From a virus (Duplodnaviria > Heunggongvirae > Uroviricota > Caudoviricetes): a DNA stretch of 25,609 nt. The notes under the pieces are model-generated. The model searched no databases. It saw nothing but the letters and a program-made list of their open reading frames with translations, and was not told the origin of the DNA. The stretch is taken from the IMG/VR virus record IMGVR_UViG_3300030339_000018; one strand, 5' to 3'. The position numbers and the translations under genes are program-made. Position 1 is the stretch's first letter, and each line of letters starts with the position of its first letter. Positions 1-23,996 of this stretch are shown piece after piece.

Positions 1-2556
1 GTGTATATGATGGCTTATGCATTAGATGCAAATGGTATGTATGAAAATTGGTCTCCATTATTTGATTATTCAAGTAAAGAAGCTTTAGATTTATCTGAAA
101 AACTTCCTATACCAACTGGTATTCCTACTAATTTTCAAATTATGTCTACTAAAGAAATTAAAGGATTAAATAGAACTGGAGTTGATTTAACTGATACAAT
201 TAAAACAGCAAATGGTAAATTAAATCATATAGAAACTTTGAATTTAATTAATGATTTACTTCCACGTATTAATAAAAATCCTGATGAATTCTTTTATAGT
301 AAAATAGCAGATGAAAGTGGATTAATGGATAAAATTAATCAACATAATACATATAGTAATCAAAAAGAAGGATTAAAAAATAATGTAGTAACAATGGTTC
401 ATAATGTAAATATGGATTTAGAAAATCAAGTATCTGCATATACCTCTATTGATTCTGGAACAGCACCATGAACTGAACAAGTTAAAAAAGCTGATACAGG
501 AGATATTTTATCTGCACATAGTGTAGTTTCATTATATAAACTTAAAGAAACAAATTCTGTGGGTAAAGATACAGTAGGTGTAATGGCTAATGGTTTAAAA
601 ACATTTTTTGCATTAACTCAATATTTTAATAAATACTATAAATCAACTGACAGTATTTCTCCAAATGATAATGCTTATTTTATAAAGAAATTTAATATAG
701 GTGGTGGAGATAAATATGTTAGTACAATTGGAGATATTAGAATTACTAGTGAACAAGCTGATATGATTAATAATTATATTAATAAAGTAGCTGATACTGA
801 TAATACTTATATGTATTTTAATAATAATGATATTTCAATTTCATTATCTGCATTAACTAGTTTAGCAGTAGATAATGCTAAAGAATTGGCATTGGCAAAA
901 CTTAATGCTGGATTAGAATTAGCAAGTATGCATATTTATTTAACTATATTAGGATTCACACCAAAAATGGTTGCAGATTATATGATGGGGCCTAATGTAA
1001 GTAGATTAGTTGCTTCTCTTAAATACAATTTCTTTACAGATGAAAAAACATCAGTAGATGATTTAGTAACTAAAAGTGGAGATAGACAATTTATTCAAAT
1101 TTATCAAGGGGCTAAAGAATTAAGAGCATTAAATACCTTTTTGGCTTTAAATCAAGGAGTAAAATCTAATATCTATGAAATTCATGGTTCTTTAGAATCT
1201 ATGAATCAAATTATTTATACTAGAGAAAGTATTTTATATAAAGGCAATACTGGAAATATGCAAAATAATTTTGATACAACTGTAGATAAAATGGTAAAAG
1301 AAATTAGTGTTAATAAACCATACTTAACTAAAGAATATATTAAAAATACATTAATACAAGCTCATAAAGAGAATATAATAATGCAGAATTTTAATTTAGA
1401 TAAATATCTTAATGATCCTATGTATAGAAAAGTAATTGTAGATTATTATAATATATTAAAACATACTATTAATATCTTTGATAGTATAAATAATCTTCCT
1501 CATTTTTATCAAATGTTACAATCTTTAAATTCATCAGTAAATTTATTAAAAGTAACATCAGCTAGAGTAAGTTTTATTGAAGATACAGTTCCAGTAGTTT
1601 TAAAATATTATAAAGATACATTAAAAAAGAAAATCACTATTAACAATGATCCCTTTGCACCATTAATATATTCTAAAGATGGGGCAAAAGCAATGAGTAC
1701 TTTATTTACTGATCATGTTATATATGAATGAATGAAGTCTCCTGATTTAGATTTTTTTAGTCTTAATTTAGAACAAATTGCAAACTTAACATCTAATTCT
1801 AAAATTGAATATTTTAATGATAAAGGTAGATTTTCAAATGATAATGTAGAAACTACTGCTGGGAATGTAATTATAGATACTAAATCTTTAGATAATTTAG
1901 CTACAATTAAAGTACTTATGGAGAAATATTTGATTCCTTATTTAAAAGAAAATGAATCTGATAATACATTTGTTAAATATTTAATTAAAGCTACTAATAA
2001 ATATTCTAAAAGAGAATTCTATAAATTAAATATTAACATGAGTGCTTTAAATGATAGTATATCTGGACCATTATTTAATGAATTACTTAGTTCATTTAAT
2101 GAATTATCAGATAAAAATAGTGGTTTAACTGGAGAAAATGATACAAACTTAAATTGAGGTGACATATTTTTTGTTTATAATACTATTATAAATAAAAATG
2201 CAATTGGAAATGAAAGAATGAGTAGAATTTTTGATGATTATGTACAAAAACCAAATTCATTAGCTATTAAATTACCAATATTTTTTGCAGAATTTGATAA
2301 TAAAACTAGAACTTTAGATATTAGTCCATATGATATAATGTATAGTTTATATAATAAACATGGAGTATTAGACCTTGTAAAAAAATCAGGGGAAAAAACA
2401 ATACCAGAATCATTAGAAATATTAAATCAACATTATACTTTAAATGTGGATTTAATTCCTTCAAATAATGAATCTAAATTAAAAAATCAATTATTAACCA
2501 AAATTATGAATGCTATGAATAATGGGCATTTCACAATAGATTTAAACTGTAACTAA
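1..2556 (+). CDS. 5'-truncated giant virion protein, probably the C-terminal part of the crAss-type two-barrel virion RNA polymerase; read through 3 TGA codons (851 aa in window)
   Basis: Track ORFs 1..471, 559..1731, 1732..2157 and 2218..2556 share one frame and are separated only by TGA (469, 1729, 2155), with no TAA/TAG in the gaps; ends TAA 2554-2556. VGVMANG...AVDNAKE resembles, from memory, the LGxIxN...AVDxxK segments of QDE-1/crAss-type two-barrel polymerases. The catalytic DxDxD is not in the window, so the product call is tentative while the ORF structure is solid. Confidence 0.6.
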
Positions 2557-3404
2557 TGGCTTGTGACTATATAATAACAACTAAAGATGGAGGTACTTTT
2601 AAAGTACCTTCACCTTTTGATACGAAATCTGATACATTATTTTCTAGTATTTTATCTAATTTAGATACTAAAACTTTAGGGCAATTAATGTCTACTATTC
2701 AAACTTCTATAAATAAAAAGATACCTAATAAACCAGTAATATCTGAAGAAATAATAAAACCAACAGATAATAATGAACTATTAGATACAATATTAACAGA
2801 AATGACTTCTAAATTTGGTATACAATTTGTACAATTTAATAAAGATAATTATGCAGATATACAACAATTATCAGTAGAAGATTTAAATAAAGTTAAAGCA
2901 TTTGCAAAAGATGGTGTAATTTACTTTAATAAAACAGAAGGAACTATTGAAGAACCTTTACATGAATTTATGCATTTGATTTTAAATACATTAAAAGTTA
3001 GAAATCCAACTTTATTTGAAAATATTGTAAAAAATATGTATAAAGTAGAAGGATATCAACAAATTGCAGATTTATATCCAAATTTAACAAGATTAGATTT
3101 AGGTGAGGAAGCATTTGTAAGATTATTTTCTAGTAAAGCAACAGAATTAATGCAAAGTACTGATTTAATGACAGCTGTTAAACAATCATTAAACGATATA
3201 TTACAACCAACTAAAGATACTTCTAATATATCTACTGAAGATTTACTTGATTTATCTATAACAGACTATATAAATCAATTTGGAAGTGAATTAATACAAG
3301 GTAAACAAGGTTTATATAATAAAACAGATAGTAATTTAGGAACTCAAATCTTAAATATAAAACAAAATTTAATGGAATCTAAAGAATTAGGAGAAAAATG
3401 TTAA
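2556..3404 (+). CDS. Zincin-like metallopeptidase domain protein (putative virion cargo protein), 282 aa
   Basis: HEFMH (HExxH) at 2961-2975 plus downstream GEEAF (3102-3116). TAATG overlaps with both neighbours. Contains no Trp codon of either kind. Confidence 0.7.
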   Translation: MACDYIITTKDGGTFKVPSPFDTKSDTLFSSILSNLDTKTLGQLMSTIQTSINKKIPNKPVISEEIIKPTDNNELLDTILTEMTSKFGIQFVQFNKDNYADIQQLSVEDLNKVKAFAKDGVIYFNKTEGTIEEPLHEFMHLILNTLKVRNPTLFENIVKNMYKVEGYQQIADLYPNLTRLDLGEEAFVRLFSSKATELMQSTDLMTAVKQSLNDILQPTKDTSNISTEDLLDLSITDYINQFGSELIQGKQGLYNKTDSNLGTQILNIKQNLMESKELGEKC

Positions 3405-6400
3405 TGGAGGGATGTAAATATATATTAAAAAGTAAAGGAATGGAATTTGATTCTGAATTAGAATTAAATGATTATATTAAAAATAATATTGATGATTTTG
3501 ACCATACTGGTAATATTGTTTATAGTTTGGCAGATAAAAAAGAAATTAATGTTTCTAAAATAAAAGAATTAATTAAAACTTACAGCCAACGTGTAAGTGA
3601 TGGTACTTCTTTATCTGTTAATGATTTTCTTGTACAAGAACATCAAATTGGAGAAAATACTGAAAGATTAGTTCCAGAATATATTGAGGAAAATAGAATT
3701 AAAAATACTATTACTCAAATTATGAAAAATAATCCTAGTTATACTGAAGCATTTGCTAGAGCAGAAATATTAAATACTATTGCTCAAGAAAATAAGATGG
3801 TAAATGTAGGTACATGAATGCATAAACTTTTACAAAAAGGGTGAAAAAGTACTTCTAGCTCAGATTTTATATCTGAGTTAGCAGGTATGGCTCAATTTAA
3901 AGATGTATTAGGTACAACAGATGAAACCGCACAACGAAAAGTTAGTGATGCTATTATAGAAGTTATAAGATTAATTTCATCAACACATCCAAATGCAACA
4001 TCATTTCCTAATCTTCAAATTGTAACTGAAGATATGCTAGGTAGAAAAGTTAATGGAAAAATTGATTTACTTTTAATTGGCGAAGATGGAAAAGCTCATA
4101 TTTATGATTTAAAAATATCTACTAAAGCATTTAATGATTGGGATTCTGCTAAAAAATTAAATACTAATTATCAATTGGGAGCATTAAGACAAATGTTATC
4201 TGCAAATGGAGTTAATATTCAAGATGCAACATTAAATGTAATTCCTATTACTATACCATTTGGTAATATAAATAGAATGCAAACTGATATAAAAATTGAA
4301 TTATTAAATCCTAAAACTCAATTAAATAATAAATTAAATTATTTTCAAGGAGATGTAAGTTTAAAACTTAAAAAATACTTACCATCTACTATATCTAATG
4401 CAGATGTTGAAAATGTTCATTTAGATAATACTTTAATTGATCAATTAGGTGTTTTATTTCCTAAATTTAATTTTGAATCTCAACAAATTAAAGTTAATTC
4501 AGAAGAATTATTTAATAACGCATCTAAAACTAAAAATTCAAATGGTGAATTTCAATTCTATAATAAATTACAAGGTAAACGTACTACAGCAAAAAATGAA
4601 ACTGAATTAAAAGAAAAAATTGATCAGTATGTTATAGATTTAGATCAACAAAAACATACAGTTATTGAGGGTTTATATGAACAATTGGATGGTTTTATAA
4701 AAACTGGACAAAAGCCTGAAAATTTATTTGGTAAAAATACTAATGCAGTTTTAAATGAAGCTATTTCATATAATTTTGATAAATACATGGATGGTACATG
4801 GAATCTTATTAAAATAGATGCATTAATGTCTGCTGGTATTTTAGGTTTTCAAAGTGAAAATGGCATGCTAGAATTCATGGTTATTTCAACTAATAGAAAA
4901 AATATATCTTATAAATTACCAGAAGGTAATTCTTTATTAGGTAAATTTCTTAATAATGAAAAAGCAAGAGAATTCTTTCCAGAAGTATTAGAAGCAACTA
5001 CTAGTAATATTGAATTAATGAAAGTATTAACTGTACTAAATTCAATACCTGAAATCTTTAATGGATATACATTAGGAGATATAAAATTTCTAAATTATCT
5101 TGAAGGTAAAGCTGATTCTAAAGATTTAAATATATTAATTAGAAATTTTAATGCATTAGCTGAAAAAGGAGGTATTGAAAGTAATTTTAAAAATAGTAAA
5201 ATTAAACCTGTTGAAACATTAGATTATATATATAATAATTTAAATTCAATTCTTAAAGTAAGTACAAATGCTGCATTGACAGATATTTTTAATGCTGTTG
5301 AGAGAGAAGATTTAATTACATTAAAACTTGAAACTTTACAAGAATTAAGACAAAAGATTTTAGATATGCCTAATCAAGCTTATTTAAAAAATAAATCTCC
5401 TAATGAAATGCTTAATTTTAATACACAAGAAGAATATGCATTATATTTAGTTAGTTTAGGAATTGCCTATTATTCTGGAATTACTAATAATGGAGATTAT
5501 ATTATCCCTCAATTAGGAATAAGTGGTGCTAATACTGTAGATGTTTTAAAGTCACCATTTACTTATAATGAAACTTCAAGAGATAAACAAGGTAATAAAG
5601 TTGTAGGGTTTCTTGGAGGTTTAACATTTGCAACTGCAAGTACACTACCTTCTAAAGATTTACATAGTATTGTAAATTTAGTAAGTATTGGTAATCAAAG
5701 AATTAGAGGTGAATATGAAAAAGTATTAACTGAAATTATACCACATACTAAAAAATATTATAAAGATTCAGGATATTCTGAAGTTTATCAACATATAATT
5801 GGTAACACATATCCATTACATGATAATTTTTATAAAAGAATGTCAGATGATACTTTAGATCCAGCAATGATGTTTAAAAATCCATATGATGAACATGAAT
5901 CTTTATTAGTGCCTCAAAGAGACTATTTAATGAGAATGTTATGGGAAATAAATAAAAGACGTTTAGGATTATCTATAGAAGAAAAACAAACCGATTATAA
6001 AAAAGCAGATAAATTAGAGAAAGTTATAAAAGCTGGTGATAAATATTTCGAAGTACCATTAATGAGGGGTACAGATGCTTCTAAATTGCATAATATAACA
6101 CTTAAAAATACTCTTGAATCTATAAAAAATAAAGTTGATGAAGTTAGAGATTATATAGATCCTAGAGAATTAACTGAAGAACAACGTATTAATGTAGTTA
6201 AACAAAAAAATAATTATCAAAATATGTACAATCAATTTAGAATGTCTGAAAATTCAAGATCTAAAATGATTGCAAATAAAGGAGTTAAATATTTTGAGAC
6301 TAATCTTGATAGAATAACATTAGAATATGTATATGCTGATATAAAAGAAAATATAATGAATAATGTATTAAGTAAAATGAATTCAGCAATTTATTTACTT

Positions 6401-7957
6401 AAATTTTATGCTAAACAATCTGGGGATGATATATCTTCAACTCTTCAATATTTTCAAGATTACATACAATCAAATATATATAATGAACCTATAATTTCAT
6501 CAGAATTACAAGATGTAGTTAAATGAGTAGAAGCTGCAAAAGGTTTTACAAGTAAATTAATTATGCCTTTTAGACCTGCAATGTTAGTAAAAGAATTAAG
6601 TATGGGAACAATTGTTAATGTTTCAAGAGCTTTTACACAAATTTATGGAGAAAATTCATTTAATATTAAACATTTAGCAGAAGCATATAAAGTTATGATA
6701 GGATCTAATAAACAATTTTCAAGAGATTTTAATAAAGTAGATGCTGTTAATAATGCCTATGGTGTAGTAAATTTAGATATGAATGTACTTGTTAATAAAA
6801 CAAGAACAGATAGAGTTGGGGCATTAAATGCATTTAATGAATGGATGTATTTTACTGCAGGACATGGTGATTATGTAAATAGAATGACTTTATTTATTGC
6901 ACAAATGATACATGATGGTGTATGAGATGCTCATACTGTAAATGAAGATGGGCATTTAATTTATGATTTTGAAAAGGATACTAGATTTGCAGAATATAAT
7001 GCTCATAAAAACTCTAAAAATTATACTTCAAAAGCATTTTTAGATCAAAAATCTCTCTATAAAGTAATTCTACAACAATTTAATACAGAAGGTTATACTA
7101 AAGAAGATGGTTCCTTGTATACAGAAGGAGATGCATTACCACAAGCATATACAGTTAAAGATAAAGAAAGTTTAAAATCTTTTGCTGATTTAGCTTATGG
7201 TTTTTATGATCATGAACGTAAATCTATGTTTAATAAAACTGCAACAGGTATTGTATTTATGCAATTTATGACATTCTGGACTGCTAAAAAAGCCTTATGG
7301 TTTACTAAACCTGGAAGTACAGAAAATAGTCAAGGTATGTGAAAAACTAAAGAAGTTATAGATCCTACTGATGGTATAAAGAAAACAGTATTTAAACGTG
7401 AATTTAAAGATGAAAATGGTATTATAGAGCATGTAGAAGAAACATTTGAGAATGATGGTAAAATGGAACCAGTAAAATATTGGGAAGGTAATCCACATGT
7501 TGGATTATTTTATGCATTAACTCATACTTTTAGAGATTTAAGTAGAGGTAATTTTAAAGAAGCATTTGCAGATACTAAACGTAATAATAGATCAAAACAA
7601 GCTTTACATGATATACTTGCTGTAATGTTTTATGCATTTATTGCAAGATTAATGTTCGGAGCAGCTAGAGAAGCTATGGGAATGGATACAACAGTTGATC
7701 CATTAAAACCAACTAAAAATGGTGGAGATTTAACTATAGTACAAAATTCATTATCATTACTTGAAAAATCCCAATTAAAAGCCTTTGGTGAATTTAATCC
7801 AGTATCAAATATTTTTGGTGGATTTAGTTGGGAACCAGCATTTGCTACTAAAGTTACAAATGTAGTTACTGGAGCTCAAAATGTAATTTTTGGTGATGGA
7901 GATCTTCTTAACTATGCTAAAAAGAATGTTACAATGTTAGAAAATTTCAATATTTAA
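3404..7957 (+). CDS. Giant (1517 aa) putative virion cargo protein with an N-terminal PD-(D/E)xK nuclease domain; read through 5 TGA codons
   Basis: One frame from ATG 3404 (TAATG overlap) to TAA 7955-7957. Interruptions are only TGA at 3815, 3842, 6524, 6923 and 7340; the gaps were translated by hand and are stop-free. Motifs: GT[W]MH, KIDLLLIGEDGKAHIYDLK, YQL. Confidence 0.8.
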
Positions 7958-8011: not shown

Positions 8012-8719
8012 TTAAGAATTATAAAATTTACGAGCATATTGTCGTCTTAAACTCTCCATTTTTGCATTTGGTGCAGGATTTTCAAAATGTTTTCTAAATA
8101 ATTCAGCTGCATCTTCTGGAGTTTTTGCTTCTTTTATCTTAGAAAGAACACCACTATAACTATTATTTAATTCATGCCATAGATATTCCATTTGACCATT
8201 TACAGAGGTATTATCTAATCCTCTTGCAGTTGAAAAGTTTTTTAAATTAGTCCATCTTCCTTGACCTACAGTTGGATCTCTCCATTGTGCTAACCCAAAA
8301 GATGTACCTTTATCCCCACCTGCTGTGGTATTTAATCCAGATTCAACCATTAAATTACCAACTACACCAGAAGCTGCTTCTTTAGATAAACCTTTATTAG
8401 TTAAAAAAGAAACCATATCTTTAGCTACACCTGTTTGTCCTTTACTAATTTTTATATTAGCAGTAATTGGGGTTTCTTTAGGTACAATTGGTGTTACAAT
8501 TTGTGGTGTAGAAGTTGAAAATAAAGGACTAGTAGATTTTATAACATCAGGTATATTATAATTTGGTAGAGTTGGTGTTTGTATATTAGTTATTGGTGCT
8601 GTATAAATAGGTGCACCTGTATATTGTACAAAAGGTAAAAGTACAGAGGTTTCTCCTGGATTATATTTATTCATATACTCTGCATATTGATTTATATCAT
8701 TTGTTGTATCGTAGTCCAT
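8012..8719 (-). CDS. Phage tail lysozyme-family (Phage_lysozyme2-like) muralytic enzyme with a Pro/Thr-rich N-terminal linker
   Basis: GVVGNLMVESGLN, GTSFGLAQW, GQMEYLWHEL and AAELFRKHFENP motifs. ATG 8719 (MDYDTT) is preferred over the track's GTG 8806, which lies inside a terminator hairpin. Confidence 0.8.
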   Translation of the reverse strand: MDYDTTNDINQYAEYMNKYNPGETSVLLPFVQYTGAPIYTAPITNIQTPTLPNYNIPDVIKSTSPLFSTSTPQIVTPIVPKETPITANIKISKGQTGVAKDMVSFLTNKGLSKEAASGVVGNLMVESGLNTTAGGDKGTSFGLAQWRDPTVGQGRWTNLKNFSTARGLDNTSVNGQMEYLWHELNNSYSGVLSKIKEAKTPEDAAELFRKHFENPAPNAKMESLRRQYARKFYNS

Positions 8720-8741
8720 ATTTTTAGATTTATTTAATTTG

Positions 8742-8749
8742 TAAAGGTA
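8742..8749 (-). promoter_or_regulatory. Possible Bacteroidota-type -7 element for the lysozyme gene (TACCTTTA, 1 mismatch)
   Basis: One mismatch to TAnnTTTG, 23 nt upstream of ATG 8719; no good -33 TTTG. Confidence 0.25.
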
Positions 8750-8785
8750 CAAAATAAAACCTATAAAAAATACTAAAATATAAAT

Positions 8786-8828
8786 AAAAAAAAATAGCCT
8801 AACCACATCATCACGACGGGGTTAGGCT
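8786..8828 (-). terminator. Intrinsic terminator ending the ligase operon
   Basis: Minus strand AGCCTAACCCCGTC-GTGAT-GATGTGGTTAGGCT (14-bp stem with one mismatch and one G-U) followed by ATTTTTTTTT. Confidence 0.85.
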
Positions 8829-8879
8829 TCACTACTTTATAAACAAAAAAGTATTTTTTACGTGTACTACACGTTATAT

Positions 8880-9229
8880 TTAAGAAAATAGTTTACTCCA
8901 GGCAGATTTTCTGGATAAATTATTTTCTAATTGAGTTTTAAATTCTTCTTTATTATTGTTATCAATTGATATTCTTTGATTAATACCAAGTAATAATTCA
9001 ATAATTTTTGATTCTAATGCTTCTACTGATTCTGTATTGACTCTGTAGAATTTATCTCCCTATTAAAAGGAGATAAATCTATAGATCTACATGAATAACT
9101 ATCAGTTTTAAAATAAATATAAGTATAAAATTTATTTTTATTTATTTCTATATTTAGTCTTTTATTTTCTTCTAACATTTGATCATATTGCCATTTAGGC
9201 ATTGTAATTGTTATTTCATCTCTATTCAT
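8880..9229 (-). pseudogene. Frameshifted hypothetical gene (116 aa if one base is restored near 9058-9060)
   Basis: ATG 9229 overlaps the ligase stop and its frame ends at TAG 9023-9025. A second frame, GGA 9059 to TAA 8880-8882, is open for 59 codons with no ATG (GDKFYRVNTESVEALESKIIELLLG...KSAWSKLFS). Confidence 0.55.
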
Positions 9230-10397
9230 AATCACGAACGCATTTAAATACAGGTTGACTTGGAATACCATCATCTGACCAACTAAAAAATGTAACAGAT
9301 GCTTTTTTACCAACTAGGTCTTCCCATGTTGCTAAATATTCTGCTCTTACTTCCCTAGTTCCCATTGGTTTTGCATCAAAACTCTTCCCTGTTTTAGTTT
9401 TTAAAGTGAAACAGAAATCTTCATCACGAAGTCCTTCTGATACACCTATTATTTCAAATTCTTCTTCCATACGTTCTTTTAGTTTAACCATAAGAACACT
9501 AGAACGCTTTCCAATACCATATGGTTTATTAGGATTACGCATTACTAAACCTTCATAACCTTCTCTTACAAATTGATCATGAGTTTTTTTAATTTTTAAA
9601 TATCCAGATAATAAATAATGATCTATAACTGTAATTTTAGGTTCATCTTTCATTATTTCTTGTAATTCCATTAATAATTCATATCTATCAACAAAATTTA
9701 AAGTTGGATGATATATATCATAAATCCAATAATTTAATACATCACATTTAGATTCCCATTCTTTAACTCTAGCCATACCAGACAGTTTTTGAAGAGAAGT
9801 ACCATGATTATATAATTCACCATCCAATTTTAAATCTGGATTAGCAATAAACCATTTAATTAATTTTTCACTAGCTCTAATTTTAGTAGTTGGTATATTA
9901 TATTCTCCACCACCACGACTTGCACTATGTATCTCATTATCTTTAAGAAATAGGCAACATCTAACTCCATCAAGTTTTCTTGAACAATACCATTCTTTTT
10001 CAAATATATTTGAAGAACACTTTTCAGAAGATACTGCAAGCATGGGTTTTGGTACACCATTTTGATCTTCTTTGTCAGTATTTACTAATTCATCAATTTC
10101 AGAATCTGATAAATCTTCAAAAGAGATTTCAGTTAAATCTTCAATTTTTGTATATCCTTTATCCATATATTTTTTTAATATGGATTTATATTCTAATTCA
10201 GCTTGTTGGATTGGAGTTCTTTTTACTTTACCACTAGTTATAGTAATAACAGGTTGAGGAGTTATCTTTCCAGCCAATTGACTTGTAAATCTTTTTATTT
10301 CAAATGAGGTAGTATTTTGTTCACAAATAGTATGAACAATTTGTACTTTACCTCTAACATTTCTACTTACTAAGTAGTTTTCAAATACTATTGCCAT
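9222..10397 (-). CDS. ATP-dependent DNA ligase (N-terminal WGR-like region)
   Basis: Motif I RKLDGVR, III LDGELY, IIIa WIYDI, IV EGLVMR, V VKLK; ends TAG. Confidence 0.93.
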   Translation of the reverse strand: MAIVFENYLVSRNVRGKVQIVHTICEQNTTSFEIKRFTSQLAGKITPQPVITITSGKVKRTPIQQAELEYKSILKKYMDKGYTKIEDLTEISFEDLSDSEIDELVNTDKEDQNGVPKPMLAVSSEKCSSNIFEKEWYCSRKLDGVRCCLFLKDNEIHSASRGGGEYNIPTTKIRASEKLIKWFIANPDLKLDGELYNHGTSLQKLSGMARVKEWESKCDVLNYWIYDIYHPTLNFVDRYELLMELQEIMKDEPKITVIDHYLLSGYLKIKKTHDQFVREGYEGLVMRNPNKPYGIGKRSSVLMVKLKERMEEEFEIIGVSEGLRDEDFCFTLKTKTGKSFDAKPMGTREVRAEYLATWEDLVGKKASVTFFSWSDDGIPSQPVFKCVRDYE

Positions 10398-10753
10398 TAA
10401 ATTTTTTTATTTTGTTCTAATTTATCTAATTCCCAACCAATACATTCTTCAAGGCAAGTTCCACCATTATAAAAACCCACTCTAAATTCATACATATCAT
10501 TTCCTAATGGATTTAGACTACAATCATCATCATTAACTTCCGAATGATCAAATATCCAATAAAGATCATTGTTATGAACCATATAAGTTTCATAACTATC
10601 TTCATATACTAAATAATCAATCCAATCTTCTACTTCTTCAGTAGGATAATCATGGGTTTCTAAATAAATACGTTTACATTGTTCATCTAATGGTTCAAAT
10701 TTTAATCTTGGTAATAATTTTAATTTACCAATATGATATTCTATATCACTCAT
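10397..10753 (-). CDS. Hypothetical acidic protein, 118 aa
   Basis: ORF with TAATG coupling to the ligase. Confidence 0.8.
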   Translation of the reverse strand: MSDIEYHIGKLKLLPRLKFEPLDEQCKRIYLETHDYPTEEVEDWIDYLVYEDSYETYMVHNNDLYWIFDHSEVNDDDCSLNPLGNDMYEFRVGFYNGGTCLEECIGWELDKLEQNKKI

Positions 10754-10759
10754 AATTTA

Positions 10760-10945
10760 TTATTCTATTACTGTCCAACAAGAATCAATGTTTTCCCACA
10801 TCCAAGCTTCATATTCACCTTGAATTATTTGATCTGGATCTTTATCACAATCATAATCATCTGGTATAGATATAATTTTAATATGTTCTCTTTCTGAACC
10901 TTGACATCCTGTTGCTACATAAAAATTTACTTTTATATTTTTCAT
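10760..10945 (-). CDS. Hypothetical protein, 61 aa (MKNIKVNF...)
   Basis: ATG 10945 is preferred over the track's GTG 11017, which lies inside dut. Confidence 0.7.
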   Translation of the reverse strand: MKNIKVNFYVATGCQGSEREHIKIISIPDDYDCDKDPDQIIQGEYEAWMWENIDSCWTVIE

Positions 10946-10983
10946 TCTACAAATACCTTTTGTATTGTTTTTTCTGTATTCAT
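10942..10983 (-). CDS. 13-aa mini-[16 protein letters not shown] (TGA stop)
   Basis: TAATG overlap with the dut stop and ATGA overlap with the next start; fills the gap exactly. Confidence 0.4.
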   Translation of the reverse strand: MNTEKTIQKVFVE

Positions 10984-11468
10984 TATTTTGTTCCTGTTGA
11001 GTTAAAGCCACCTTCACCTCTGTCTGTTTTATCTAAATGAATTACTTCATTCCATTCAATTAAAGATACTTTAGCTAAAACTAATTGAGCTATTCTATCT
11101 CCTTGTTGTATTTCAAATACATCATCACTTAAATTCATAAGTATAACACCAATTTCTCCACGGTAATCACTATCAATCGTTCCAGGTGTATTTAATACTG
11201 TTACCCCAAATTTTAATGCAGTACCACTTCTTGGTCTTACTTGTAGTTCATATCCTGGAGGAAATGAAGTGTATAATCCTGTTGGGATTAATACTCTACC
11301 ACCACTGAATACTAATAATGTATTTCTTTCTTCATCAAATGCTGCTCCGAACATATATTCAGAATTTAAGCCATTGGTAAAGTTAGCACGGAGATCCTGT
11401 CCTGAATCTCCGGGTTTCGCATATGTTGGGAGGGCATTCCCTCCATCATTTATTACGTTTACTTTCAT
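10983..11468 (-). CDS. dut: Trimeric dUTPase
   Basis: Five motifs: [38 protein letters not shown]. Confidence 0.95.
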
Positions 11469-11607
11469 CGTTTATTTTTTCTTTTTCTAATTTCTTAATT
11501 AACTCAACAAGATTATAATAACCTTGGCATTTAGTACTCATATCACTAAGAATACTGAAATGAAGTTCAATATATTTAAGAGTGTATAAATCCAGTTTCT
11601 TTTCCAT
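11446..11607 (-). CDS. Hypothetical protein, 53 aa ([18 protein letters not shown]...ESKRNK), TGA stop; not in track
   Basis: Translated by hand. ATG 11607 to TGA 11446-11448; overlaps the dut start by 23 nt. Confidence 0.6.
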
Positions 11608-11755
11608 TATTTTGTATTATTTCAAGTACTTTTTCTAATTCAACATATTTTTTAGTTACTGGACAGAATTTTATACTAATCCATTTATTCTCTATTATAT
11701 TAATAGTTTTTAATTTATTAATTTTTAATTCTATTTTATCCGACTCTAAACTCAT
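11576..11755 (-). CDS. Hypothetical protein, 59 aa (MSLESDKIELKINK...GFIHS); not in track
   Basis: Translated by hand; fills the gap between neighbours with short overlaps. Confidence 0.6.
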   Translation of the reverse strand: MSLESDKIELKINKLKTINIIENKWISIKFCPVTKKYVELEKVLEIIQNNGKETGFIHS

Positions 11756-11945
11756 TGTCTTTTAATGTATTACTAATTAATATTTCATAGTGTTTATAAC
11801 TACTTAATCTAGTACCATCTTCTTCAATACCTATGCATAATTCTTGTAGAAGAACCGTAGCAGTAGTTGAATTCATAACAATGAACTCAACTACTCCTTT
11901 CATACTCTTACTAATTATTGCTTCATTTAATAATTTTTGTATCAT
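11736..11945 (-). CDS. Hypothetical protein, 69 aa
   Basis: ORF in a tightly packed operon. Confidence 0.7.
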   Translation of the reverse strand: MIQKLLNEAIISKSMKGVVEFIVMNSTTATVLLQELCIGIEEDGTRLSSYKHYEILISNTLKDNEFRVG

Positions 11946-11955
11946 TTATTTTTTA

Positions 11956-12210
11956 TTAATTATCATAGTATACTTCATCTAATGGAACTGTTACTATTGA
12001 TTCTAGATGTTCCTCACTCCAATAACTATATTCACCATCTTCATCATTAGTATCAATCACACATTCTCTATCTGTATTGAATTTGAATTCTCCTTTATTA
12101 ACCCAACCTTCAATAAATCCTACTATAAACCCAGTATAAAGATCACCACATTCAGTAAACCAAACTTCATCTCCTACAAAAAACTTTTTCTTCCCCATTT
12201 CTATGCACAT
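11956..12210 (-). CDS. Hypothetical protein (F-x-VGDEVW start, SH3/KOW-like); alternative start ATG 12198
   Basis: ORF overlapping the nrdJ stop. Confidence 0.7.
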   Translation of the reverse strand: MCIEMGKKKFFVGDEVWFTECGDLYTGFIVGFIEGWVNKGEFKFNTDRECVIDTNDEDGEYSYWSEEHLESIVTVPLDEVYYDN

Positions 12211-14762
12211 TTCGAATTACCGCAATTAAGACATTGCTTGCATCCTGATTGATAAACAATTGTCTCCATTCCACATTCTGTACAAATTTCTCCATGAGAT
12301 TGTGTACCATCTTTTACAAATGGTTTTAATGATCTTTCAATACCATTTTTCCAGTTATTCATTCCTTTATTAGTGAACATTAATCCACCAACAACTTTAA
12401 TAACTTGTTCAATAGGAGTTTTATGTCTTAATAATGCTGATACAAATCGAGCATAATTCCAAAATTCTTTATCAAAAATACGAGATAATCCTCCTAATGT
12501 ATTAGTATATCCATAAGAATCAATATATCTAAAATCATATCTTGAGGTTCCATCATTTTGTTGTACTTTAATAATTTGTCCACTAGTTACAAAAGATGGA
12601 ATTGGAAATACATCCATATCTTTAGGGCCAGTAAATATTTCATAAGGTAAATCATTCATAATTCCTATAAATGCAACCCAATCTTTTTTCTCATTTTTAA
12701 ATTGTTCAACTTTACATTCTAATTCAATAGGTCTTTCTTCTAGAATGTCAGAAGATACATCTGCAGTTTTAGTTAAAATACCAGCTCTACATCCATCACG
12801 ATATACAGTTGTCCCTTTTAAATCATACTTCCATGCTAATCTATAAAGAGTATCTATAGTTTCCTTAGGAGTATCACTTGCTAAATTAATAGTAGAACTA
12901 ATAGAATGAGTAGTATATTTTTGTAATAAACTCTGAGTTTGAATTCTCACTTCTGGAGTAATATCTTCAGCCATATTATTATACCAAGGAGAGTTTTCAA
13001 TTAAGAAATCTAACTCAGCATCTGGCATTTTCATTAATACTTCAATAGTACTTAATGGATTTTTTGATATATACCATTTCTTAAAACTACCATGAATAAC
13101 TCTATTATTAGTATAACCTTGGCCACTTAAATCAATAAAATCAGGAGTTTCATTTCCATTACATTTCTTTCTGCGATTGTAATATGCCATAAATAATGGT
13201 TCACAACCACTTGTTGTACCTGCTTCAATACTGATAGTACCAGTAGGTGCAATTGTGCTCCAACTAATATTTCTCCTGCCATATTTTTTCATTTTTTCAT
13301 ATTGAGGTCTAAAATTAGTTCTCAAAAATTGATAAAATTGATTACCTGCCGACTCAAGATCTCCATCTAAAGGGTATTCTAAATCTTTATCATAAACAGG
13401 AAATGGATCATTAATAATTGCTAAATCAATAGTTGCATCTGATTCAGCTTTCATTTTGAGAGCCATGATTTGTTTAGTGATAGCTACATCTCCATAATCT
13501 ACACCTAATGCAGCACATAAATCTCCATAACCAGTTATACCTACTCCTGTACGTCTGCCATTTTGACCTACTTCATAAATTTTTTCCCAAAGGACTTTTT
13601 CATCTCCTATTGTTGCATCAATTATTCTTTGTACATGTTCAAGTTCTAAATCAACAAGAATATCACCAATTACTTGTGCTTCATAAAATACTTTATAAGC
13701 CTTATCTATATTAATTGTAGCATTGTCTTCAAATTGATTATCTACTAAATTGAATAAATTCACTGCAATTAATCTACAAGAATCATAAGGTGAGAGTGGA
13801 ATCTCTCCACAAGGATTTGTGCTAATTGCTCTAAATTCTGGATATACACTTGCAGGATCATTATCAATGATGGTATCCCAAAATAAAATACCAGGTTCTG
13901 CTGTATTCCAAGCACATTGAATTATAGAATCCCATAATTCTTTTGCTTTAATTTTCTTTGCATATGCAACTAATACACCATCTACTTTAATACTTTTTAA
14001 AATATTATAAGGAAATTCCATTTCAGATTCAAGTAATTCATTACATTCATAATCAACTGGCCACCTTAGTATATAATCTTCATTTGCTTCAACAGCTTTC
14101 ATAAATGTATCTGTTAATCTTACAGATATATTTGCCCCATTAATTTTAGTTAAATTTTGTTTAGCTAAAATAAATTCTGGAGAATCTGGATGATCAATAC
14201 TTAATGAAAGCATTAATGCTCCACGTCTACCATCTTGTCCAATAGTTTCAGTAACTTTACTGTATAATTCTGCAAATGGTACAATACCACCAGTAGTTTT
14301 TGCTGCATTATTTACATAAGCTTTTGCAGGTCTAATAGGAGATAAATCAGTCCCATTACCACCTCTACGTTTATAAATCTGCGACATATCTCTTGCTGTA
14401 TTAAAAATATCAGCAATAGAATCATCTGTTGGCGTAACAAAACAATTAGATAATGATACTAATTTTCCACTACCTAATCCTGCTAGTACAGAACCACCAG
14501 GAATTATATATTTAAAATCAGTAAATAATTCTAATAATTTTTCTTTAAAATCTTGATCATTTCGTTTTTTTCCATAATCTGATAAATCCGCATATTTTTC
14601 AGGAGATATTTTATTAATATTCATAAAATTATCTTTTCTTGCAAATTCTGATGCTAAACGATTAAAAAACTCAGATAAAGTTTCGTCATTTAATCTATAT
14701 TTATCAACCCACACTTTTCGTGCTAAATCATCGTTTTTGAAGTAATCTTCAATTTCTATCAT
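12201..14762 (-). CDS. nrdJ: Class II (adenosylcobalamin-dependent) ribonucleotide reductase, 853 aa
   Basis: TNPCGEI thiyl-radical Cys motif, SNCF, TIAPTGTIS and C-terminal CTECG...GCKQCLNCGNSKC. No ATP cone and no nrdB nearby. Start ATG 14762 lies downstream of the promoter; the track's TTG 14798 is inside it. Confidence 0.9.
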   Translation of the reverse strand: MIEIEDYFKNDDLARKVWVDKYRLNDETLSEFFNRLASEFARKDNFMNINKISPEKYADLSDYGKKRNDQDFKEKLLELFTDFKYIIPGGSVLAGLGSGKLVSLSNCFVTPTDDSIADIFNTARDMSQIYKRRGGNGTDLSPIRPAKAYVNNAAKTTGGIVPFAELYSKVTETIGQDGRRGALMLSLSIDHPDSPEFILAKQNLTKINGANISVRLTDTFMKAVEANEDYILRWPVDYECNELLESEMEFPYNILKSIKVDGVLVAYAKKIKAKELWDSIIQCAWNTAEPGILFWDTIIDNDPASVYPEFRAISTNPCGEIPLSPYDSCRLIAVNLFNLVDNQFEDNATINIDKAYKVFYEAQVIGDILVDLELEHVQRIIDATIGDEKVLWEKIYEVGQNGRRTGVGITGYGDLCAALGVDYGDVAITKQIMALKMKAESDATIDLAIINDPFPVYDKDLEYPLDGDLESAGNQFYQFLRTNFRPQYEKMKKYGRRNISWSTIAPTGTISIEAGTTSGCEPLFMAYYNRRKKCNGNETPDFIDLSGQGYTNNRVIHGSFKKWYISKNPLSTIEVLMKMPDAELDFLIENSPWYNNMAEDITPEVRIQTQSLLQKYTTHSISSTINLASDTPKETIDTLYRLAWKYDLKGTTVYRDGCRAGILTKTADVSSDILEERPIELECKVEQFKNEKKDWVAFIGIMNDLPYEIFTGPKDMDVFPIPSFVTSGQIIKVQQNDGTSRYDFRYIDSYGYTNTLGGLSRIFDKEFWNYARFVSALLRHKTPIEQVIKVVGGLMFTNKGMNNWKNGIERSLKPFVKDGTQSHGEICTECGMETIVYQSGCKQCLNCGNSKCA

Positions 14763-14784
14763 ATTTATTCTTTTAAATTGTATA

Positions 14785-14816
14785 CAAAGATACAACAATT
14801 TTTCAATTCTCGCAAG
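14785..14816 (-). promoter_or_regulatory. Bacteroidota sigmaA-type promoter for nrdJ
   Basis: Minus strand CTTG-N20-TATCTTTG. The 11-mer TATCTTTGTAT is identical to that in the promoter at 21001-21011. Confidence 0.8.
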
Positions 14817-14860
14817 TATTAAAAAATGTTAACTCTCTATATATTATATGTTTATAGATA

Positions 14861-15133
14861 TTACATATCTAAAAATTCTTGGATTAACTCAGGTGTTAAT
14901 TCCTTTTTACTTTCAGGCCAATATGCCGCATATTCGACCACATTTTCATTCTCAAATATTAAAATAGGTAATTGTTTAGCCCCATGTCTAGTCATTAAAA
15001 GAATAGCATTTTTACGTTGTTTATAATTATCAAAATTATATGTTTCTAAATAAATAGGATATGTAACTTTATCTAATATACTAAAAACATTATCTTTTGT
15101 TTCATTATTATAAACTAATTTAATTACTCTCAT
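14861..15133 (-). CDS. Thioredoxin/glutaredoxin-fold-like protein with no Cys
   Basis: HGAKQLPILIF resembles the cis-Pro segment of the Trx fold; adjacent to nrdJ. Fold call is from memory. Confidence 0.45.
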   Translation of the reverse strand: MRVIKLVYNNETKDNVFSILDKVTYPIYLETYNFDNYKQRKNAILLMTRHGAKQLPILIFENENVVEYAAYWPESKKELTPELIQEFLDM

Positions 15134-15389
15134 TTTCTATATAATATTTAATTATTTGTCCATTTTTATCATATAAGATAGTTAATGGAATATCTAGTTT
15201 AATACATGATAATTTTACTGCATATAATAAATCAAATTGATGGGTTCTTATTAGTTGAACTATATTTTGTAAATCTACAGGAGTTGGTTGTTGTCGTCCA
15301 AATAAGTCTGTAACATTTACAATAAATTGATTTAACTCACCTATTGTCATTTGAGTATTATTAATAATTTTCTCAATTATTTCTTTCAT
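15120..15389 (-). CDS. Hypothetical protein, 89 aa
   Basis: ORF overlapping the downstream start. Confidence 0.8.
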   Translation of the reverse strand: MKEIIEKIINNTQMTIGELNQFIVNVTDLFGRQQPTPVDLQNIVQLIRTHQFDLLYAVKLSCIKLDIPLTILYDKNGQIIKYYIENESN

Positions 15390-15429
15390 ATAATATTTTT
15401 TAGTTGTGAGTAGTATTTAAAATCATTTT

Positions 15430-15474
15430 AATTAATTGTAATACCAAAACTGAATAATGGTATTACAATTAATT
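15430..15474. repeat. Perfect 17-bp inverted repeat with an 11-nt spacer
   Basis: AATTAATTGTAATACCA (15430-15446) / TGGTATTACAATTAATT (15458-15474), intergenic. Confidence 0.95.
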
Positions 15475-15495
15475 TTAAATGTTTAAAATGAAAAA

Positions 15496-15723
15496 TTATA
15501 CATTAATAGATAAATAATCTATTTCATAATCTCCATGTAATAATTCTTTAATAAGATTCTCATTTTCTTCATCATACACCTCACTCAATTCTTCTGCTGT
15601 TATATCAGATGGGATTGTAATAAATTTAGTAATACAAGCTTCAACTAGTACTTCTTGAGTATTTTGATTCCAAGGTGCATCTTCTGTATGTTCTGATACT
15701 CCAGGTGGATAATTTGATAACAT
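15496..15723 (-). CDS. Hypothetical acidic protein (N-terminal SNYPPGV...APWN motif)
   Basis: ORF; YPPG...APWN is a recurrent motif in small phage proteins. Confidence 0.8.
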   Translation of the reverse strand: MLSNYPPGVSEHTEDAPWNQNTQEVLVEACITKFITIPSDITAEELSEVYDEENENLIKELLHGDYEIDYLSINV

Positions 15724-15724
15724 A

Positions 15725-16165
15725 TTAATTTCTTTTTAAAAAAATATAATCTACACCTTTATAATAGTAAATTTCTCTTGGTTCAGTATCTAATATATCT
15801 TCATAATTATTCAAACAATATTCTTCAAGTTCATCTTCATCTACTATAAAAGTGGATGGCATATAATTTGAATTTCTCATATTATATTTTAAATCTTGTT
15901 CTGCATTATAAATTTCATTAGGTAATAATTCATATTTAATTAAATTATGCATTTCTGTTGCTGTATAAATTAAATAATTATATTCATCTTCATCATTATA
16001 AGTAGCTTTGAAATTATTATCATCATCACTATCTTCATCTAACTCTACAATTTCTAAATCATCACTATCTATTTCTAGAAATTCTTCTAAAGCTTCAATT
16101 TTTAAAATTACTACTTGTTGTTCTTCAGTAAGGATTATTTCCTCTACATTTTCTAAATTATTCAT
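15725..16165 (-). CDS. Highly acidic hypothetical protein, 146 aa
   Basis: Hand count: 41 D+E versus 9 K+R. Confidence 0.85.
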   Translation of the reverse strand: MNNLENVEEIILTEEQQVVILKIEALEEFLEIDSDDLEIVELDEDSDDDNNFKATYNDEDEYNYLIYTATEMHNLIKYELLPNEIYNAEQDLKYNMRNSNYMPSTFIVDEDELEEYCLNNYEDILDTEPREIYYYKGVDYIFLKRN

Positions 16166-16466
16166 ATACTACTATTGTTTTTGTTATTGGAAATACTTCC
16201 TTTATCTCTTCTATTTCAAAATAATCATAACCATGTATACTAATCATACAAAAGTATTTATTATCTGAAATCCTTTTAAATATTGTTTCTCTAGTTATAG
16301 AACCACCATGACCTTCATCATAACTATCAATAGTAGAGTCAACTACTTCAAAAAGTAATTTTGAATCATCATCACAATCATCATCTATATAAATATCTTC
16401 AAAATAAGTAAGTTGATCAAAATTATATTTATCCCATTGGGATTTATCAATTATTTCTCTATTCAT
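16158..16466 (-). CDS. Acidic hypothetical protein, paralogue of 16459..16743
   Basis: FKRISDNKYF...EVFPITKTIVVYE. Confidence 0.85.
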   Translation of the reverse strand: MNREIIDKSQWDKYNFDQLTYFEDIYIDDDCDDDSKLLFEVVDSTIDSYDEGHGGSITRETIFKRISDNKYFCMISIHGYDYFEIEEIKEVFPITKTIVVYE

Positions 16467-16743
16467 AGATTGTAGTCATTACTTGTTTTGGTTGTACCTC
16501 CATTAAAATAAATTCTTCATCATCTTCAGTATAATCAGACATATTACAATTATAATTATAAAAAGCACTTGTACTAAAGAACTTATCATCAGTAGCTCTT
16601 TGAAGAATTACTTCAAATTCCCAAAGGTCATGATCAACTCCTAATAATTTTTTATAATCTTCAACTATTTCAAAATTATCAGATTCATTATCTAGAATTT
16701 CTATGAATTCTTTACCAAATATAATAACTTCTTCTTTAATCAT
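16459..16743 (-). CDS. Acidic hypothetical protein, paralogue of 16158..16466
   Basis: LQRATDDKFF...EVQPKQVMTTIYE; ends TAG. Confidence 0.85.
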   Translation of the reverse strand: MIKEEVIIFGKEFIEILDNESDNFEIVEDYKKLLGVDHDLWEFEVILQRATDDKFFSTSAFYNYNCNMSDYTEDDEEFILMEVQPKQVMTTIYE

Positions 16744-17509
16744 TAGTAACTCCTAATAAACGGTTAATAATCATAGTCTTTTCAAACTTATTCATAATAT
16801 CTTTTTTATCATCAGTTACTATTTGAGTAAATGCATTATATACATCAAATAGTGAAGGATCATGACCTTCTGGAATAAAATATTCACTCTCTTGATTAAT
16901 AAATAATTGTTTATATGCATCAATTGGAGTAGATACTGCAATTTTTACTTTACCAAAACCATAGTCTTGTGATTCTCTTAAAGAGTAGTCAACCCATTCT
17001 CCAAGATATTGTTTACGCATATCCCTACTAAGGAATTCACTTTTCATTTTTGCCATATTAATAGCAAAGTCATTAGTATATTCCATTAAATCCTTAATTG
17101 GTTTAAAATTAATTGGATCTCCTGGGATTAAATCTTGTACATTTAACCATTGAGGATTAAATACTGTTAAATTTGTACAGGCTTGATTCAAATATCCTCT
17201 ATAGATTTTAACTACTGGTTTCTTTACATCTATACCATATAAAAATCCTATAACTTCATCATGAGAATCAATACTGTATTTCTCAGGTAATACTGCTTGA
17301 ATTAAAACTCTATTAAAAGTTATATCAGTATTCTCTGTATTTGTGGTCATTTGATCAGGCATTTTTACTTGAATCCTAAAATCTTCTGTAAAAGCAGTCA
17401 TTCTTTCTAAAAATGGTTCTACATAATTTTTAGTTGCATTAAATTCTTTATTTTTTATAAGGGTTGACTTCCCTCTTAGCAATTCTGCTATACTTATTTC
17501 ATTTGCCAT
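16736..17509 (-). CDS. DUF932/DUF945-like conserved crAss-type protein
   Basis: GFLYGID...KIYRGYLNQACTNL resembles the DUF932 CxN motif region; family call is from memory. Confidence 0.55.
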   Translation of the reverse strand: MANEISIAELLRGKSTLIKNKEFNATKNYVEPFLERMTAFTEDFRIQVKMPDQMTTNTENTDITFNRVLIQAVLPEKYSIDSHDEVIGFLYGIDVKKPVVKIYRGYLNQACTNLTVFNPQWLNVQDLIPGDPINFKPIKDLMEYTNDFAINMAKMKSEFLSRDMRKQYLGEWVDYSLRESQDYGFGKVKIAVSTPIDAYKQLFINQESEYFIPEGHDPSLFDVYNAFTQIVTDDKKDIMNKFEKTMIINRLLGVTND

Positions 17510-17511
17510 TA

Positions 17512-17793
17512 TTAATCATTATTATTTTCATTTGCATATAATAAACCTTCATCATAACCTTCACTATATCCATTTTCGTACCCATTTTTATATCCATTTT
17601 CATATGCCCTGTCAGATTCTTCACTACAACCTCTATCATAACCTTCATCATAACCTTCAGCAGAACCATCAGCAAATGCTAAATTATATTCTTCAGCTAA
17701 CTGATCTTCAAAAATAGAATATAATTCTTCAACTAATTCATCTTCTTCATACTCGAAATTTTCAAGTAAAAATTCTCTTATATTTTCTTTCAT
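17512..17793 (-). CDS. Acidic protein with GY(D/E/K/S)x tetrapeptide repeats (FliH/Yae1-like GxxxG repeat)
   Basis: EGYDEGYDRG...ENGYKNGYENGYSEGYDEG. Confidence 0.8.
   Translation of the reverse strand: MKENIREFLLENFEYEEDELVEELYSIFEDQLAEEYNLAFADGSAEGYDEGYDRGCSEESDRAYENGYKNGYENGYSEGYDEGLLYANENNND
17544..17659. repeat. 20-bp direct repeat within a 12-bp-periodic coding repeat
   Basis: aaccttcatcataaccttca at 17544-17563 and 17640-17659. Confidence 0.9.
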
Positions 17794-17794
17794 A

Positions 17795-18160
17795 TTAATA
17801 ACTTATTTTTTTTCCACATTCAGGACAATAATTTTGTTCATTAAATTTTGCATCATCACAACAATTAACTATTTTTAATTCTCTTTTTTTAATTAAATAA
17901 CTATATTGTTTAACTAATTCATCTAAATTTAAAAATTCTAATTCTGGATATTCATCTGTATCTTCTAAATCTTCAGGATCATATAATAAATCTTTATTGA
18001 CATGATAATTTATATAATCTTGTATAAAACTCTCTAGTTCATAATTACTATAAATATCTATATCATTATCTTTAATAAATTCCTCAATATCAAATTCAAT
18101 ATCTGTATTAAATAATTTATTAAGTTGGATTGTATATCTGCTTTTTATTTTTACTATCAT
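17795..18160 (-). CDS. Acidic protein with a C-terminal zinc-ribbon-like Cys cluster
   Basis: NCCDDAKFNEQNYCPECG. Confidence 0.8.
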   Translation of the reverse strand: MIVKIKSRYTIQLNKLFNTDIEFDIEEFIKDNDIDIYSNYELESFIQDYINYHVNKDLLYDPEDLEDTDEYPELEFLNLDELVKQYSYLIKKRELKIVNCCDDAKFNEQNYCPECGKKISY

Positions 18161-18528
18161 AATTTACAATTTTCTAAATTAAATTCATATTCAAAATCTT
18201 CACTTTCTTCCATAAATTGAATAGGAGGAATTTCTCCATTCTTTAATTTATAAGTATAAAATTTATTATGTAGTAAAGGTAATCCTTCTACATCTGAATC
18301 ATATTCAGATTGCATATAAGCTATATCCTCTGCAAAGTTTAAATAAGGATAATCTTCTTCTTTAATATCTTCATCATCATATGATGTATTATATAAACCT
18401 GCTGGAGTTTGTTTTACATCATGAAAATATTTACAGAAATGATCAATAAAATCTTGATTAATTACTGTTTCATCTATTTCAACTGTATAAATCTTTTCAG
18501 ATTTAATTGTTACTTCTATTGTTTTCAT
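18157..18528 (-). CDS. Acidic hypothetical protein, 123 aa; TGA stop
   Basis: Ends TTA TGA TAG TAA; ATGA overlap with the next gene. Confidence 0.85.
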   Translation of the reverse strand: MKTIEVTIKSEKIYTVEIDETVINQDFIDHFCKYFHDVKQTPAGLYNTSYDDEDIKEEDYPYLNFAEDIAYMQSEYDSDVEGLPLLHNKFYTYKLKNGEIPPIQFMEESEDFEYEFNLENCKL

Positions 18529-20117: not shown

Positions 20118-20159
20118 TTTCAATTTTTTATGGGTTGTACCCCGTTAATTCGTGTATTA

Positions 20160-20197
20160 ATGAAAAAAGGCCGATAGAATTTAATCTACCGACCTTT
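20160..20197 (-). terminator. Intrinsic terminator (possibly bidirectional) after the 207-aa gene
   Basis: Minus strand AAAGGTCGGTAGA-TTAAAT-TCTATCGGCCTTT (two G-U pairs), then a T-tract; also a T-tract on +. Confidence 0.85.
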
Positions 20198-20199
20198 AT

Positions 20200-20310
20200 T
20201 TTTTTATACTTTTATACTGTATTCAGTAAATGACTTACGACATTACTCGACTCAATATCCAATAGAGTTTCAGCTTCCTATTAACGGTAGAAGATTCCGT
20301 ATTGAATCTT
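20200..20310 (-). ncRNA. Candidate structured 3' UTR / small RNA (four adjacent hairpins)
   Basis: Hairpins at 20291-20310, 20250-20268, 20229-20244 (GUAA tetraloop) and 20215-20228. No family recognised. Confidence 0.3.
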
Positions 20311-20932: not shown

Positions 20933-21003
20933 AATTTTAATTTTTACTTATTAATTCATTAATATTTTATATCTAATTGTATTTATTATCTCCTTTTGTT
21001 ATA

Positions 21004-21035
21004 CAAAGATACTGCTTTTTTTCCATTTCACCAAA
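21004..21035 (-). promoter_or_regulatory. Consensus Bacteroidota sigmaA promoter
   Basis: Minus strand TTTG (21035-21032)-N20-TATCTTTG (21011-21004); A-rich leader without a positioned SD. Confidence 0.88.
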
Positions 21036-21103
21036 TGTTTTGGTAAATATTTTCAAAAAAAGTATCTTTTTATTACACAACATTTTTTTAATTTTTATTT
21101 AGA

Positions 21104-22042: not shown

Positions 22043-22045
22043 ACT

Positions 22046-23995: not shown

Positions 23996-23996
23996 A

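Follow-up and report, generated by a model that had tools for sequence, protein, structure and literature searches.

In-frame TGA codons in two giant genes

What does TGA mean to a phage in which it recurs inside the frames of giant genes? This question is raised by the first 7957 nucleotides (+ strand) of the Caudoviricetes record IMGVR_UViG_3300030339_000018, a stretch of DNA of 25,609 nt that is referred to, at its full length, as the window. Under translation table 11 this block contains ten open reading frames (ORFs), which become three genes under table 4 (1..2556, 2556..3404 and 3398..7957): four ORFs merge into the first one, termed gene 1, and five into the third one, termed gene 3. 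An initial annotation had proposed that these nine ORFs are two genes interrupted by eight in-frame TGAs, and our recount matched it exactly, with TGAs at 469, 1729 and 2155 in the frame of 1..2556 and at 3815, 3842, 6524, 6923 and 7340 in the frame of 3398..7957. Its tally of 8 TGA versus 9 TGG codons for both giant genes within the window was obtained again, and the contexts that it judged suitable for tryptophan, GT[W]MH, HDGV[W]DAH and VVK[W]VEA, are present in the translation.

The window includes the 3' 851 codons of gene 1 (1..2556, +), the 5' end of which lies beyond it; the complete gene (L005:22-8670) has 2882 codons, with 3 TGA and 15 TGG. Gene 3 (3398..7957, +) carries 5 TGA and 8 TGG and is 1519 codons long from the ATG at 3398, or 1517 codons from the TAATG-coupled ATG at 3404. 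Between these giants lies a gene of 282 amino acids (aa; 2556..3404, +) with neither TGA nor TGG. All three genes end in TAA, and the predicted TAATG coupling is found at both ends of the 282-aa gene, as overlaps at 2554-2558 and 3402-3406.

The eight in-frame TGAs are real and far beyond chance. Indeed, TAA and TAG amount to 0.07-0.12% per codon in frame versus 8.6-13.5% in the off frames, and the stretches of 12-63 codons after the TGAs, described initially as free of TAA and TAG, hold none in 187 gap codons. Gene 1 is TAA/TAG-free over 2882 codons, and when gene 3 was shuffled 500 times the longest TAA/TAG-free frame reached 175 codons, versus 1519 observed. The TGAs are not assembly errors of TGG either, a point that the initial annotation had listed for verification. 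The same phage is present in at least 35 assembly blocks (JGI, ENA, Logan) with identical ORF breaks, and the window differs from L005 by a single base over 16.5 kb. L001, L005 and L006 carry the same TGAs, the independent JGI, ENA, Logan and IMG/VR assemblies agree, and in the contigs of four further peat runs, outside those flagged as a possible source, 1-7957 shows no changes other than C>T at positions 83 and 128. Gene 3 is held by 24 peat-metagenome runs, and no RNA dataset is found among the sequencing runs listed as holding it.

As had been anticipated, standard-code calling misrepresents this region: it splits the two giants into nine pieces and the 62-kb late block to which they belong into dozens, thus hiding RNA-polymerase-like and nuclease-bearing proteins. 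The exact 1519-aa code-4 product of gene 3 is already present among JGI/IMG gene calls.

TGA positions correspond to tryptophan codons in relatives

To assign a meaning to these codons, they were compared with relatives that are 49-79% identical (for gene 3, P0004/L003 at 79% and P0006/L004 at 52% aa identity). In codon alignments, all eight TGAs face TGG in at least one relative. For gene 1, the TGAs at residues 2188 (469..471, +), 2608 (1729..1731, +) and 2750 (2155..2157, +) are TGG in L004. For gene 3, those at residues 140 (3815..3817, +), 1043 (6524..6526, +) and 1315 (7340..7342, +) are TGG in both L003 and L004, the last one being F or Y in distant homologues. Residue 149 (3842..3844, +) is TGG in L003 and TTG in L004, and residue 1176 (6923..6925, +) is TGA in L003 and TGG in L004, in a column where the family has W, Y, F or TGA. 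At a Trp background of 0.7%, eight TGG matches out of eight would be expected by chance with a probability of the order of 1e-16. The relatives' own TGAs sit at other conserved Trp columns; for instance, L004 has its own TGA at gene 3 column 468, where 8 of 9 homologues carry W.

The same tendency is seen in the family alignment of 35 gene 3 homologues, which contains 98 TGA columns. W makes up 9.5% of the residues at these columns versus 0.7% in the background, a 13.6-fold enrichment, and F and Y are about 2.3-fold enriched. Glycine, expected under code 25, is outside the eight commonest residues, and Q is enriched at TAG columns. Furthermore, the ratio of nonsynonymous to synonymous substitution rates (dN/dS) against L003 is 0.16-0.36 in every inter-TGA segment, including the one after the TGA shared with L003, so that by this measure all segments are under purifying selection. 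Collectively, the TGG codons at TGA columns, the W enrichment and the low dN/dS indicate that TGA is read through, probably as Trp, in line with the initial proposal.

A homologue of gene 3 is encoded at 80 further IMG/VR loci: roughly 70 show 4-22 in-frame TGAs, in-frame TAGs occur in eight, L002 among them, and one lacks both; the TAG-using members of the family include L002/G002, L054, L093, L113 and L126. The base following the sense TGAs is A in 21 cases, G in 15, T in 7 and C in 2, which resembles the first-position background, and we therefore claim no context signal.

TGA as sense and as stop in one genome

The two giant genes are the last two large genes of a late block on the + strand, which comprises 33 genes over 61.8 kb. 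TGA is found within 24 of these genes, with 70 TGA and 81 TGG codons in total, and the block uses 30 TAA and 3 TAG stops and no TGA stop. The density of TGA varies between genes: its share of Trp codons is 17% in gene 1, 38% in gene 3 and 88% in the homologue of the crAss muzzle gene (crAss_MUZ, PF25731, E 7.7e-32; +), which carries 15-17 TGA versus 2 TGG. An M15 peptidase/endolysin gene (+) has 3 TGA and no TGG.

The opposite strand looks different. The block at 8012..25445 (-) encodes lysozyme, DNA ligase, dUTPase, ribonucleotide reductase (RNR), a T5 A1-like protein, an AAA ATPase and an exonuclease, and it has 61 TGG and no internal TGA, so that the window holds 8 TGA/9 TGG on its + strand versus 0/61 on its - strand (Fisher 1e-6). 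At 18151..18159 (-), a TGA stop within an ATGA overlap is directly followed by TAG and TAA, forming a triple stop. Over the whole early strand, 256 TGG codons occur with almost no internal TGA, and TGA is the stop of 18 ORFs among 135; TAA or TAG follows within 20 codons in 14 of these 18 cases, and such stops often lie in ATGA overlaps. TGA thus carries two meanings in one genome.

This distribution bears on whether the host itself uses code 4, in which case the phage would share its host's code and no switch would take place. A G+C content as low as 25% resembles that of code-4 bacteria. On the other hand, the near lack of internal TGA among the 256 TGG of the early strand and the 18 TGA stops there speak against such a host, as does the phage's own tRNA(UCA), presented below; moreover, Bacteroidota, from which crAss-like phages are known, have the standard code (PMC7886860). 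We regard a code-4 host as very improbable.

A second possibility is that the TGAs are leaky terminators at which low read-through throttles the giant proteins, truncated products being dominant. The small numbers of TGAs in the window genes (3 and 5) would suit such a role, and so would the double TGA located directly before the nuclease core of gene 3. It is nevertheless improbable, since a gene with 15-17 TGA versus 2 TGG would hardly be expressed in this way, all segments downstream of the TGAs are under purifying selection and a dedicated tRNA(UCA) exists.

A tRNA with a UCA anticodon

The initial annotation had advised a search of the remaining genome for a tRNA with the anticodon TCA and for an RF1-like or aminoacyl-tRNA synthetase gene. 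The first part of this search succeeded. The rest of the genome was read from overlapping public contigs of the same phage, and the tRNA gene was found on one of them, the IMG/VR contig G008 (L162:5287-5359(-), 73 nt; Infernal 50.9 bits; ARAGORN anticodon tca). The tRNA gene lies on the window's + (late) strand, about 77.5 kb past the window's end; the stretch around it is free of TGA, and the first late gene with a TGA is located about 10.8 kb downstream of it. The tRNA has A1-U72 and G73 and no long extra arm; A1-U72 and G73 are Trp-type tRNA identity elements, known from E. coli. It is followed by a gene for a 197-aa Zn-ribbon/HNH-like protein, an arrangement also seen in the relatives G003 and G004, and is near-identical to the tRNA of G003. 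The TGA-recoded relatives G003, G004 and G005 all have an orthologous tRNA(UCA), which likewise stands apart from the main tRNA island. The locus is held by the same 24 peat runs as gene 3. The second part of the search gave no candidate: no release-factor (RF1-like) or tryptophanyl-tRNA synthetase (TrpRS) gene was seen in precomputed Pfam lists or genome scans, a check that was not exhaustive.

The contig G008 was retrieved by an IMG/VR viral-contig search with a gene at about 134 kb, a search with window:22423-23520 having found nothing; about 80% of the genome, read from other public contigs, had shown no tRNA with a UCA anticodon. With each end of a 168-kb ENA record G008 shares an overlap, of 1681 nt (99.8% nucleotide identity) and 1728 nt (100%), which closes the genome at about 167.5 kb, with a G+C content of 25-27%. 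The decoder tRNA, its TGA-free stretch and the recoded late genes thereby all find their place on a single closed genome. At one genome position (L150:1, L152, L151), which G008 spans, several independent assemblies are interrupted, and the ENA record, with 168,189 bp, exceeds the closed circle by about 680 nt, a hint of a terminal repeat. PhoH, sought as a way to the spot syntenic with the relatives' tRNA(UCA), gave no match tied to this phage.

ARAGORN labels this tRNA 'SeC', from the anticodon alone, and TGA could in principle mean selenocysteine, or glycine as in code 25. However, the aligned columns of close relatives carry TGG, never GGN or TGY, glycine is not among the common residues at TGA columns, and a tRNA of 73 nt with G73 and without a long extra arm does not fit. 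As for pseudogenes or assembly errors, all assemblies show the same TGAs and dN/dS stays well under 1. To this whole group of explanations we give next to no credence.

Another tRNA deserves more attention. C:A wobble reading of UGA is a mechanism known from Blastocrithidia, Zinderia and Hirsh-type suppressors, and UGA might here be read mainly or additionally by a loosened-stem tRNA-Trp(CCA). The phage gene for this tRNA (L047:12331-12402) has an A27.C43 mismatch, leaving a 4-bp anticodon stem, together with a U11:A24 pair, a U12.C23 mismatch and C54. In the relatives' tRNA-Trp(CCA), by comparison, the stems are fully paired. Just downstream of the gene sits an HNH-like paralogue of the one that follows tRNA(UCA), and a tRNA-Trp(CCA) whose stem has 4 bp increases UGA read-through in E. 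coli (PMC13092985). Such stems nonetheless occur in 8.9% of bacterial tRNA-Trp(CCA) genes, mostly in standard-code genomes, one is present in G002 too, a near-cognate reader is not needed when the genome has a cognate tRNA(UCA), and the 15-17 TGAs of the muzzle gene demand efficient decoding. The loosened tRNA-Trp(CCA), once the favoured decoder, was accordingly demoted by the finding of tRNA(UCA) on G008, and we consider this route unlikely. An extension of it would join both tRNAs as UGA readers, the tRNA-Trp(CCA) acting through its unpinned 27:43 position and A24 and each tRNA being followed by a copy of the HNH-like gene; the sparse density of TGA, which differs from gene to gene, would then tune the timing and amount of each virion protein, as a graded translational timer instead of an on/off switch. 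This idea seems doubtful to us.

A probable late-gene code switch

We favour, with a probability of about 0.9, the reading that this is a crAss-like peat phage whose late genes use TGA as Trp through the phage's own tRNA(UCA), its early genes keeping the standard code with TGA as stop. In this scheme, the host, still unmodified, would translate the early genes (replication and nucleotide metabolism, minus strand), which are in the standard code. The suppressor tRNA(UCA) would be made from standard-code, TGA-free DNA and, presumably charged by the host TrpRS, would accumulate until TGA read-through makes full-length late proteins possible; before that, translation of the late genes would stop early at their TGAs. 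The charging with Trp and the timing of the switch are presumed, and so is a standard-code host, judged from early genes that stop at TGA and lack it internally.

Several observations weigh against this scheme. Four early-strand ORFs (L047:9040-9825, L047:18164-19267, L045:6830-7633 and L045:8843-9997) end in TGA, and yet their frames stay open for a further 69-219 codons, reaching into the following called ORF. In addition, a cluster of four genes on the minus strand of G008 (reverse-complement 14053-17509), inside the TGA-free stretch, has 9 TGA and 2 TGG; it gave no family match. The two strands are thus not strictly separated in their recoding. The sequence of the tRNA(UCA) comes from a contig of the same phage in another sample rather than from the record of the window itself, and two TGA-recoded relatives, G006 and G007, show no tRNA(UCA), so that this tRNA may not be the sole route. 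Finally, the insertion of Trp is deduced from DNA sequence, through TGG/TGA interchange and tRNA identity elements.

Candidate functions of the giant proteins

Gene 1 contains a sole DxDxD motif, GADFDIDK (residues 2026-2030), which ends one codon before window position 1 and has the counterpart GSDLDIDK in the gene 1 relative of L004. This motif is the signature of the large subunit of the crAss-like RNA polymerase (RNAP; PMC7886860). Gene 1 may thus encode a giant crAss-type RNA-polymerase-like protein with an RNAP B'-type motif, an assignment made at the level of the motif rather than of a profile or structure match. Gene 3 has an N-terminal PD-(D/E)XK nuclease domain (residues 129-272, Pfam PDDEXK_1), and its remainder matches no family in PHROGs or Pfam. 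A gene for a 2909-aa protein, located upstream in the late block (+), has weak P-loop matches only (PHROGs, Pfam). When gene 1, gene 3, the alignment A1 and the 2909-aa gene were compared with solved structures, by sequence and by profile, no credible match emerged.

The arrangement is reminiscent of the virion RNAP and cargo proteins of crAss-like phages, such as phi14:2 gp66 and the PhicrAss001 cargo block, in that giant genes likewise lie downstream of the muzzle gene and gene 1 has a single DxDxD (ADFDID), kept in a relative. It differs from them in that the giants of this phage have no detectable match to the solved structures and that gene 3 has a PD-(D/E)XK nuclease domain instead. By position and by analogy with crAss-like phages, the giant proteins could be packaged in the virion.

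Relation to known recoded phages

The initial lead to Crassvirales holds: the phage has a crAss-type capsid gene (Crass_capsid, PF23898; L150:4620-5723, E 9.4e-10, 37.9 bits versus a cut-off of 27), the muzzle gene and a block of giant proteins with DxDxD, the latter at motif level. Its features fit the published Zeta group of crAss-like phages, a placement by shared features rather than by a TerL tree; a terminase was not identified in the stretches annotated. Zeta genomes measure 145-192 kb and carry numerous tRNAs, introns and RNR, Thy1 and dUTPase genes, the code changes between close branches of the group, and suppressor tRNAs are imperfectly present (PMC7886860). The likeness covers the genome size, the many tRNAs, the introns and homing endonucleases, the encoded RNR, Thy1 and dUTPase, the giant-protein block including one protein with DxDxD, the use of TGA, TAG or the standard code inside one clade with recoding limited to late genes, and a suppressor tRNA that is not always found. 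In contrast to the Zeta phages, which come from the human gut, this one comes from peat, and its recoding is sparse in the two window genes and heavy in the muzzle gene.

The phenomenon is not new, as was already stated initially. Yutin 2021 described 243 crAss-like phages with TAG-to-Gln or TGA-to-Trp recoding, mostly in late genes (PMC7886860), and Borges et al. 2021 described the TGA-recoded code 4 phages Agate and Jade together with a code-switch model (bioRxiv 10.1101/2021.08.26.457843). Large crAss-like phages whose late genes are recoded from TGA to Trp are thus part of the published record, and our data, which fit the code-switch model, add no new principle; they extend mixed-code crAss-like phages from guts to peat. 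As in Agate and Jade, in-frame TGAs occur in structural and lysis genes, the replication genes use the standard code and tRNA(UCA) lies in a standard-code stretch upstream of the recoded genes. Unlike them, this phage belongs to a crAss-like clade, comes from an environmental habitat and shows no 'code change module' of TrpRS or RF1, within the limits of the check described above. A suppressor tRNA was present in only 35% of the TGA-recoded genomes of Borges et al. (bioRxiv 10.1101/2021.08.26.457843). The code 4 of Mycoplasmatales and Spiroplasma is similar in that a tRNA-Trp(UCA) decodes UGA as Trp, but it applies to the entire genome, where TGA never serves as a stop, whereas the early genes of this phage still use TGA to terminate.

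Other features of the genome

Upstream of the window, the late block (+) also includes the capsid gene, together with one tail-fibre-like and one portal-like gene. Of the 496 positions of the Crass_capsid profile, the capsid ORF covers only 113-384, and a NUMOD3 endonuclease gene comes next; an intron may thus interrupt the capsid gene (L150:4620-7755).

No tRNA gene was found in the window itself. A tRNA island located 35-42 kb beyond its end, to which the tRNA-Trp(CCA) described above belongs, contains 19 ARAGORN tRNAs, in addition to an Asp(GUC) tRNA and one with the anticodon CAU and a 64-nt insert; no UCA anticodon was found in the island. The insertion in this CAU-anticodon tRNA (L047:6498-6628) stands directly after the anticodon, and the gene may be intron-bearing. 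Among the relatives, G002 carries a tRNA(CUA), and G005 carries both tRNA(CUA) and tRNA(UCA), the latter with 96 nt and a long extra arm. Two isolated, odd tRNA-like genes were also noted (L153:6669-6746 and L157:215-285), one with a GCA anticodon, C33 and an anticodon stem that bulges by 3 nt, the other with an AAA anticodon and 30 bits only. Finally, the phage genome carries a full-length tmRNA gene (L153:2994-3413; RF00023, 75.5 bits).

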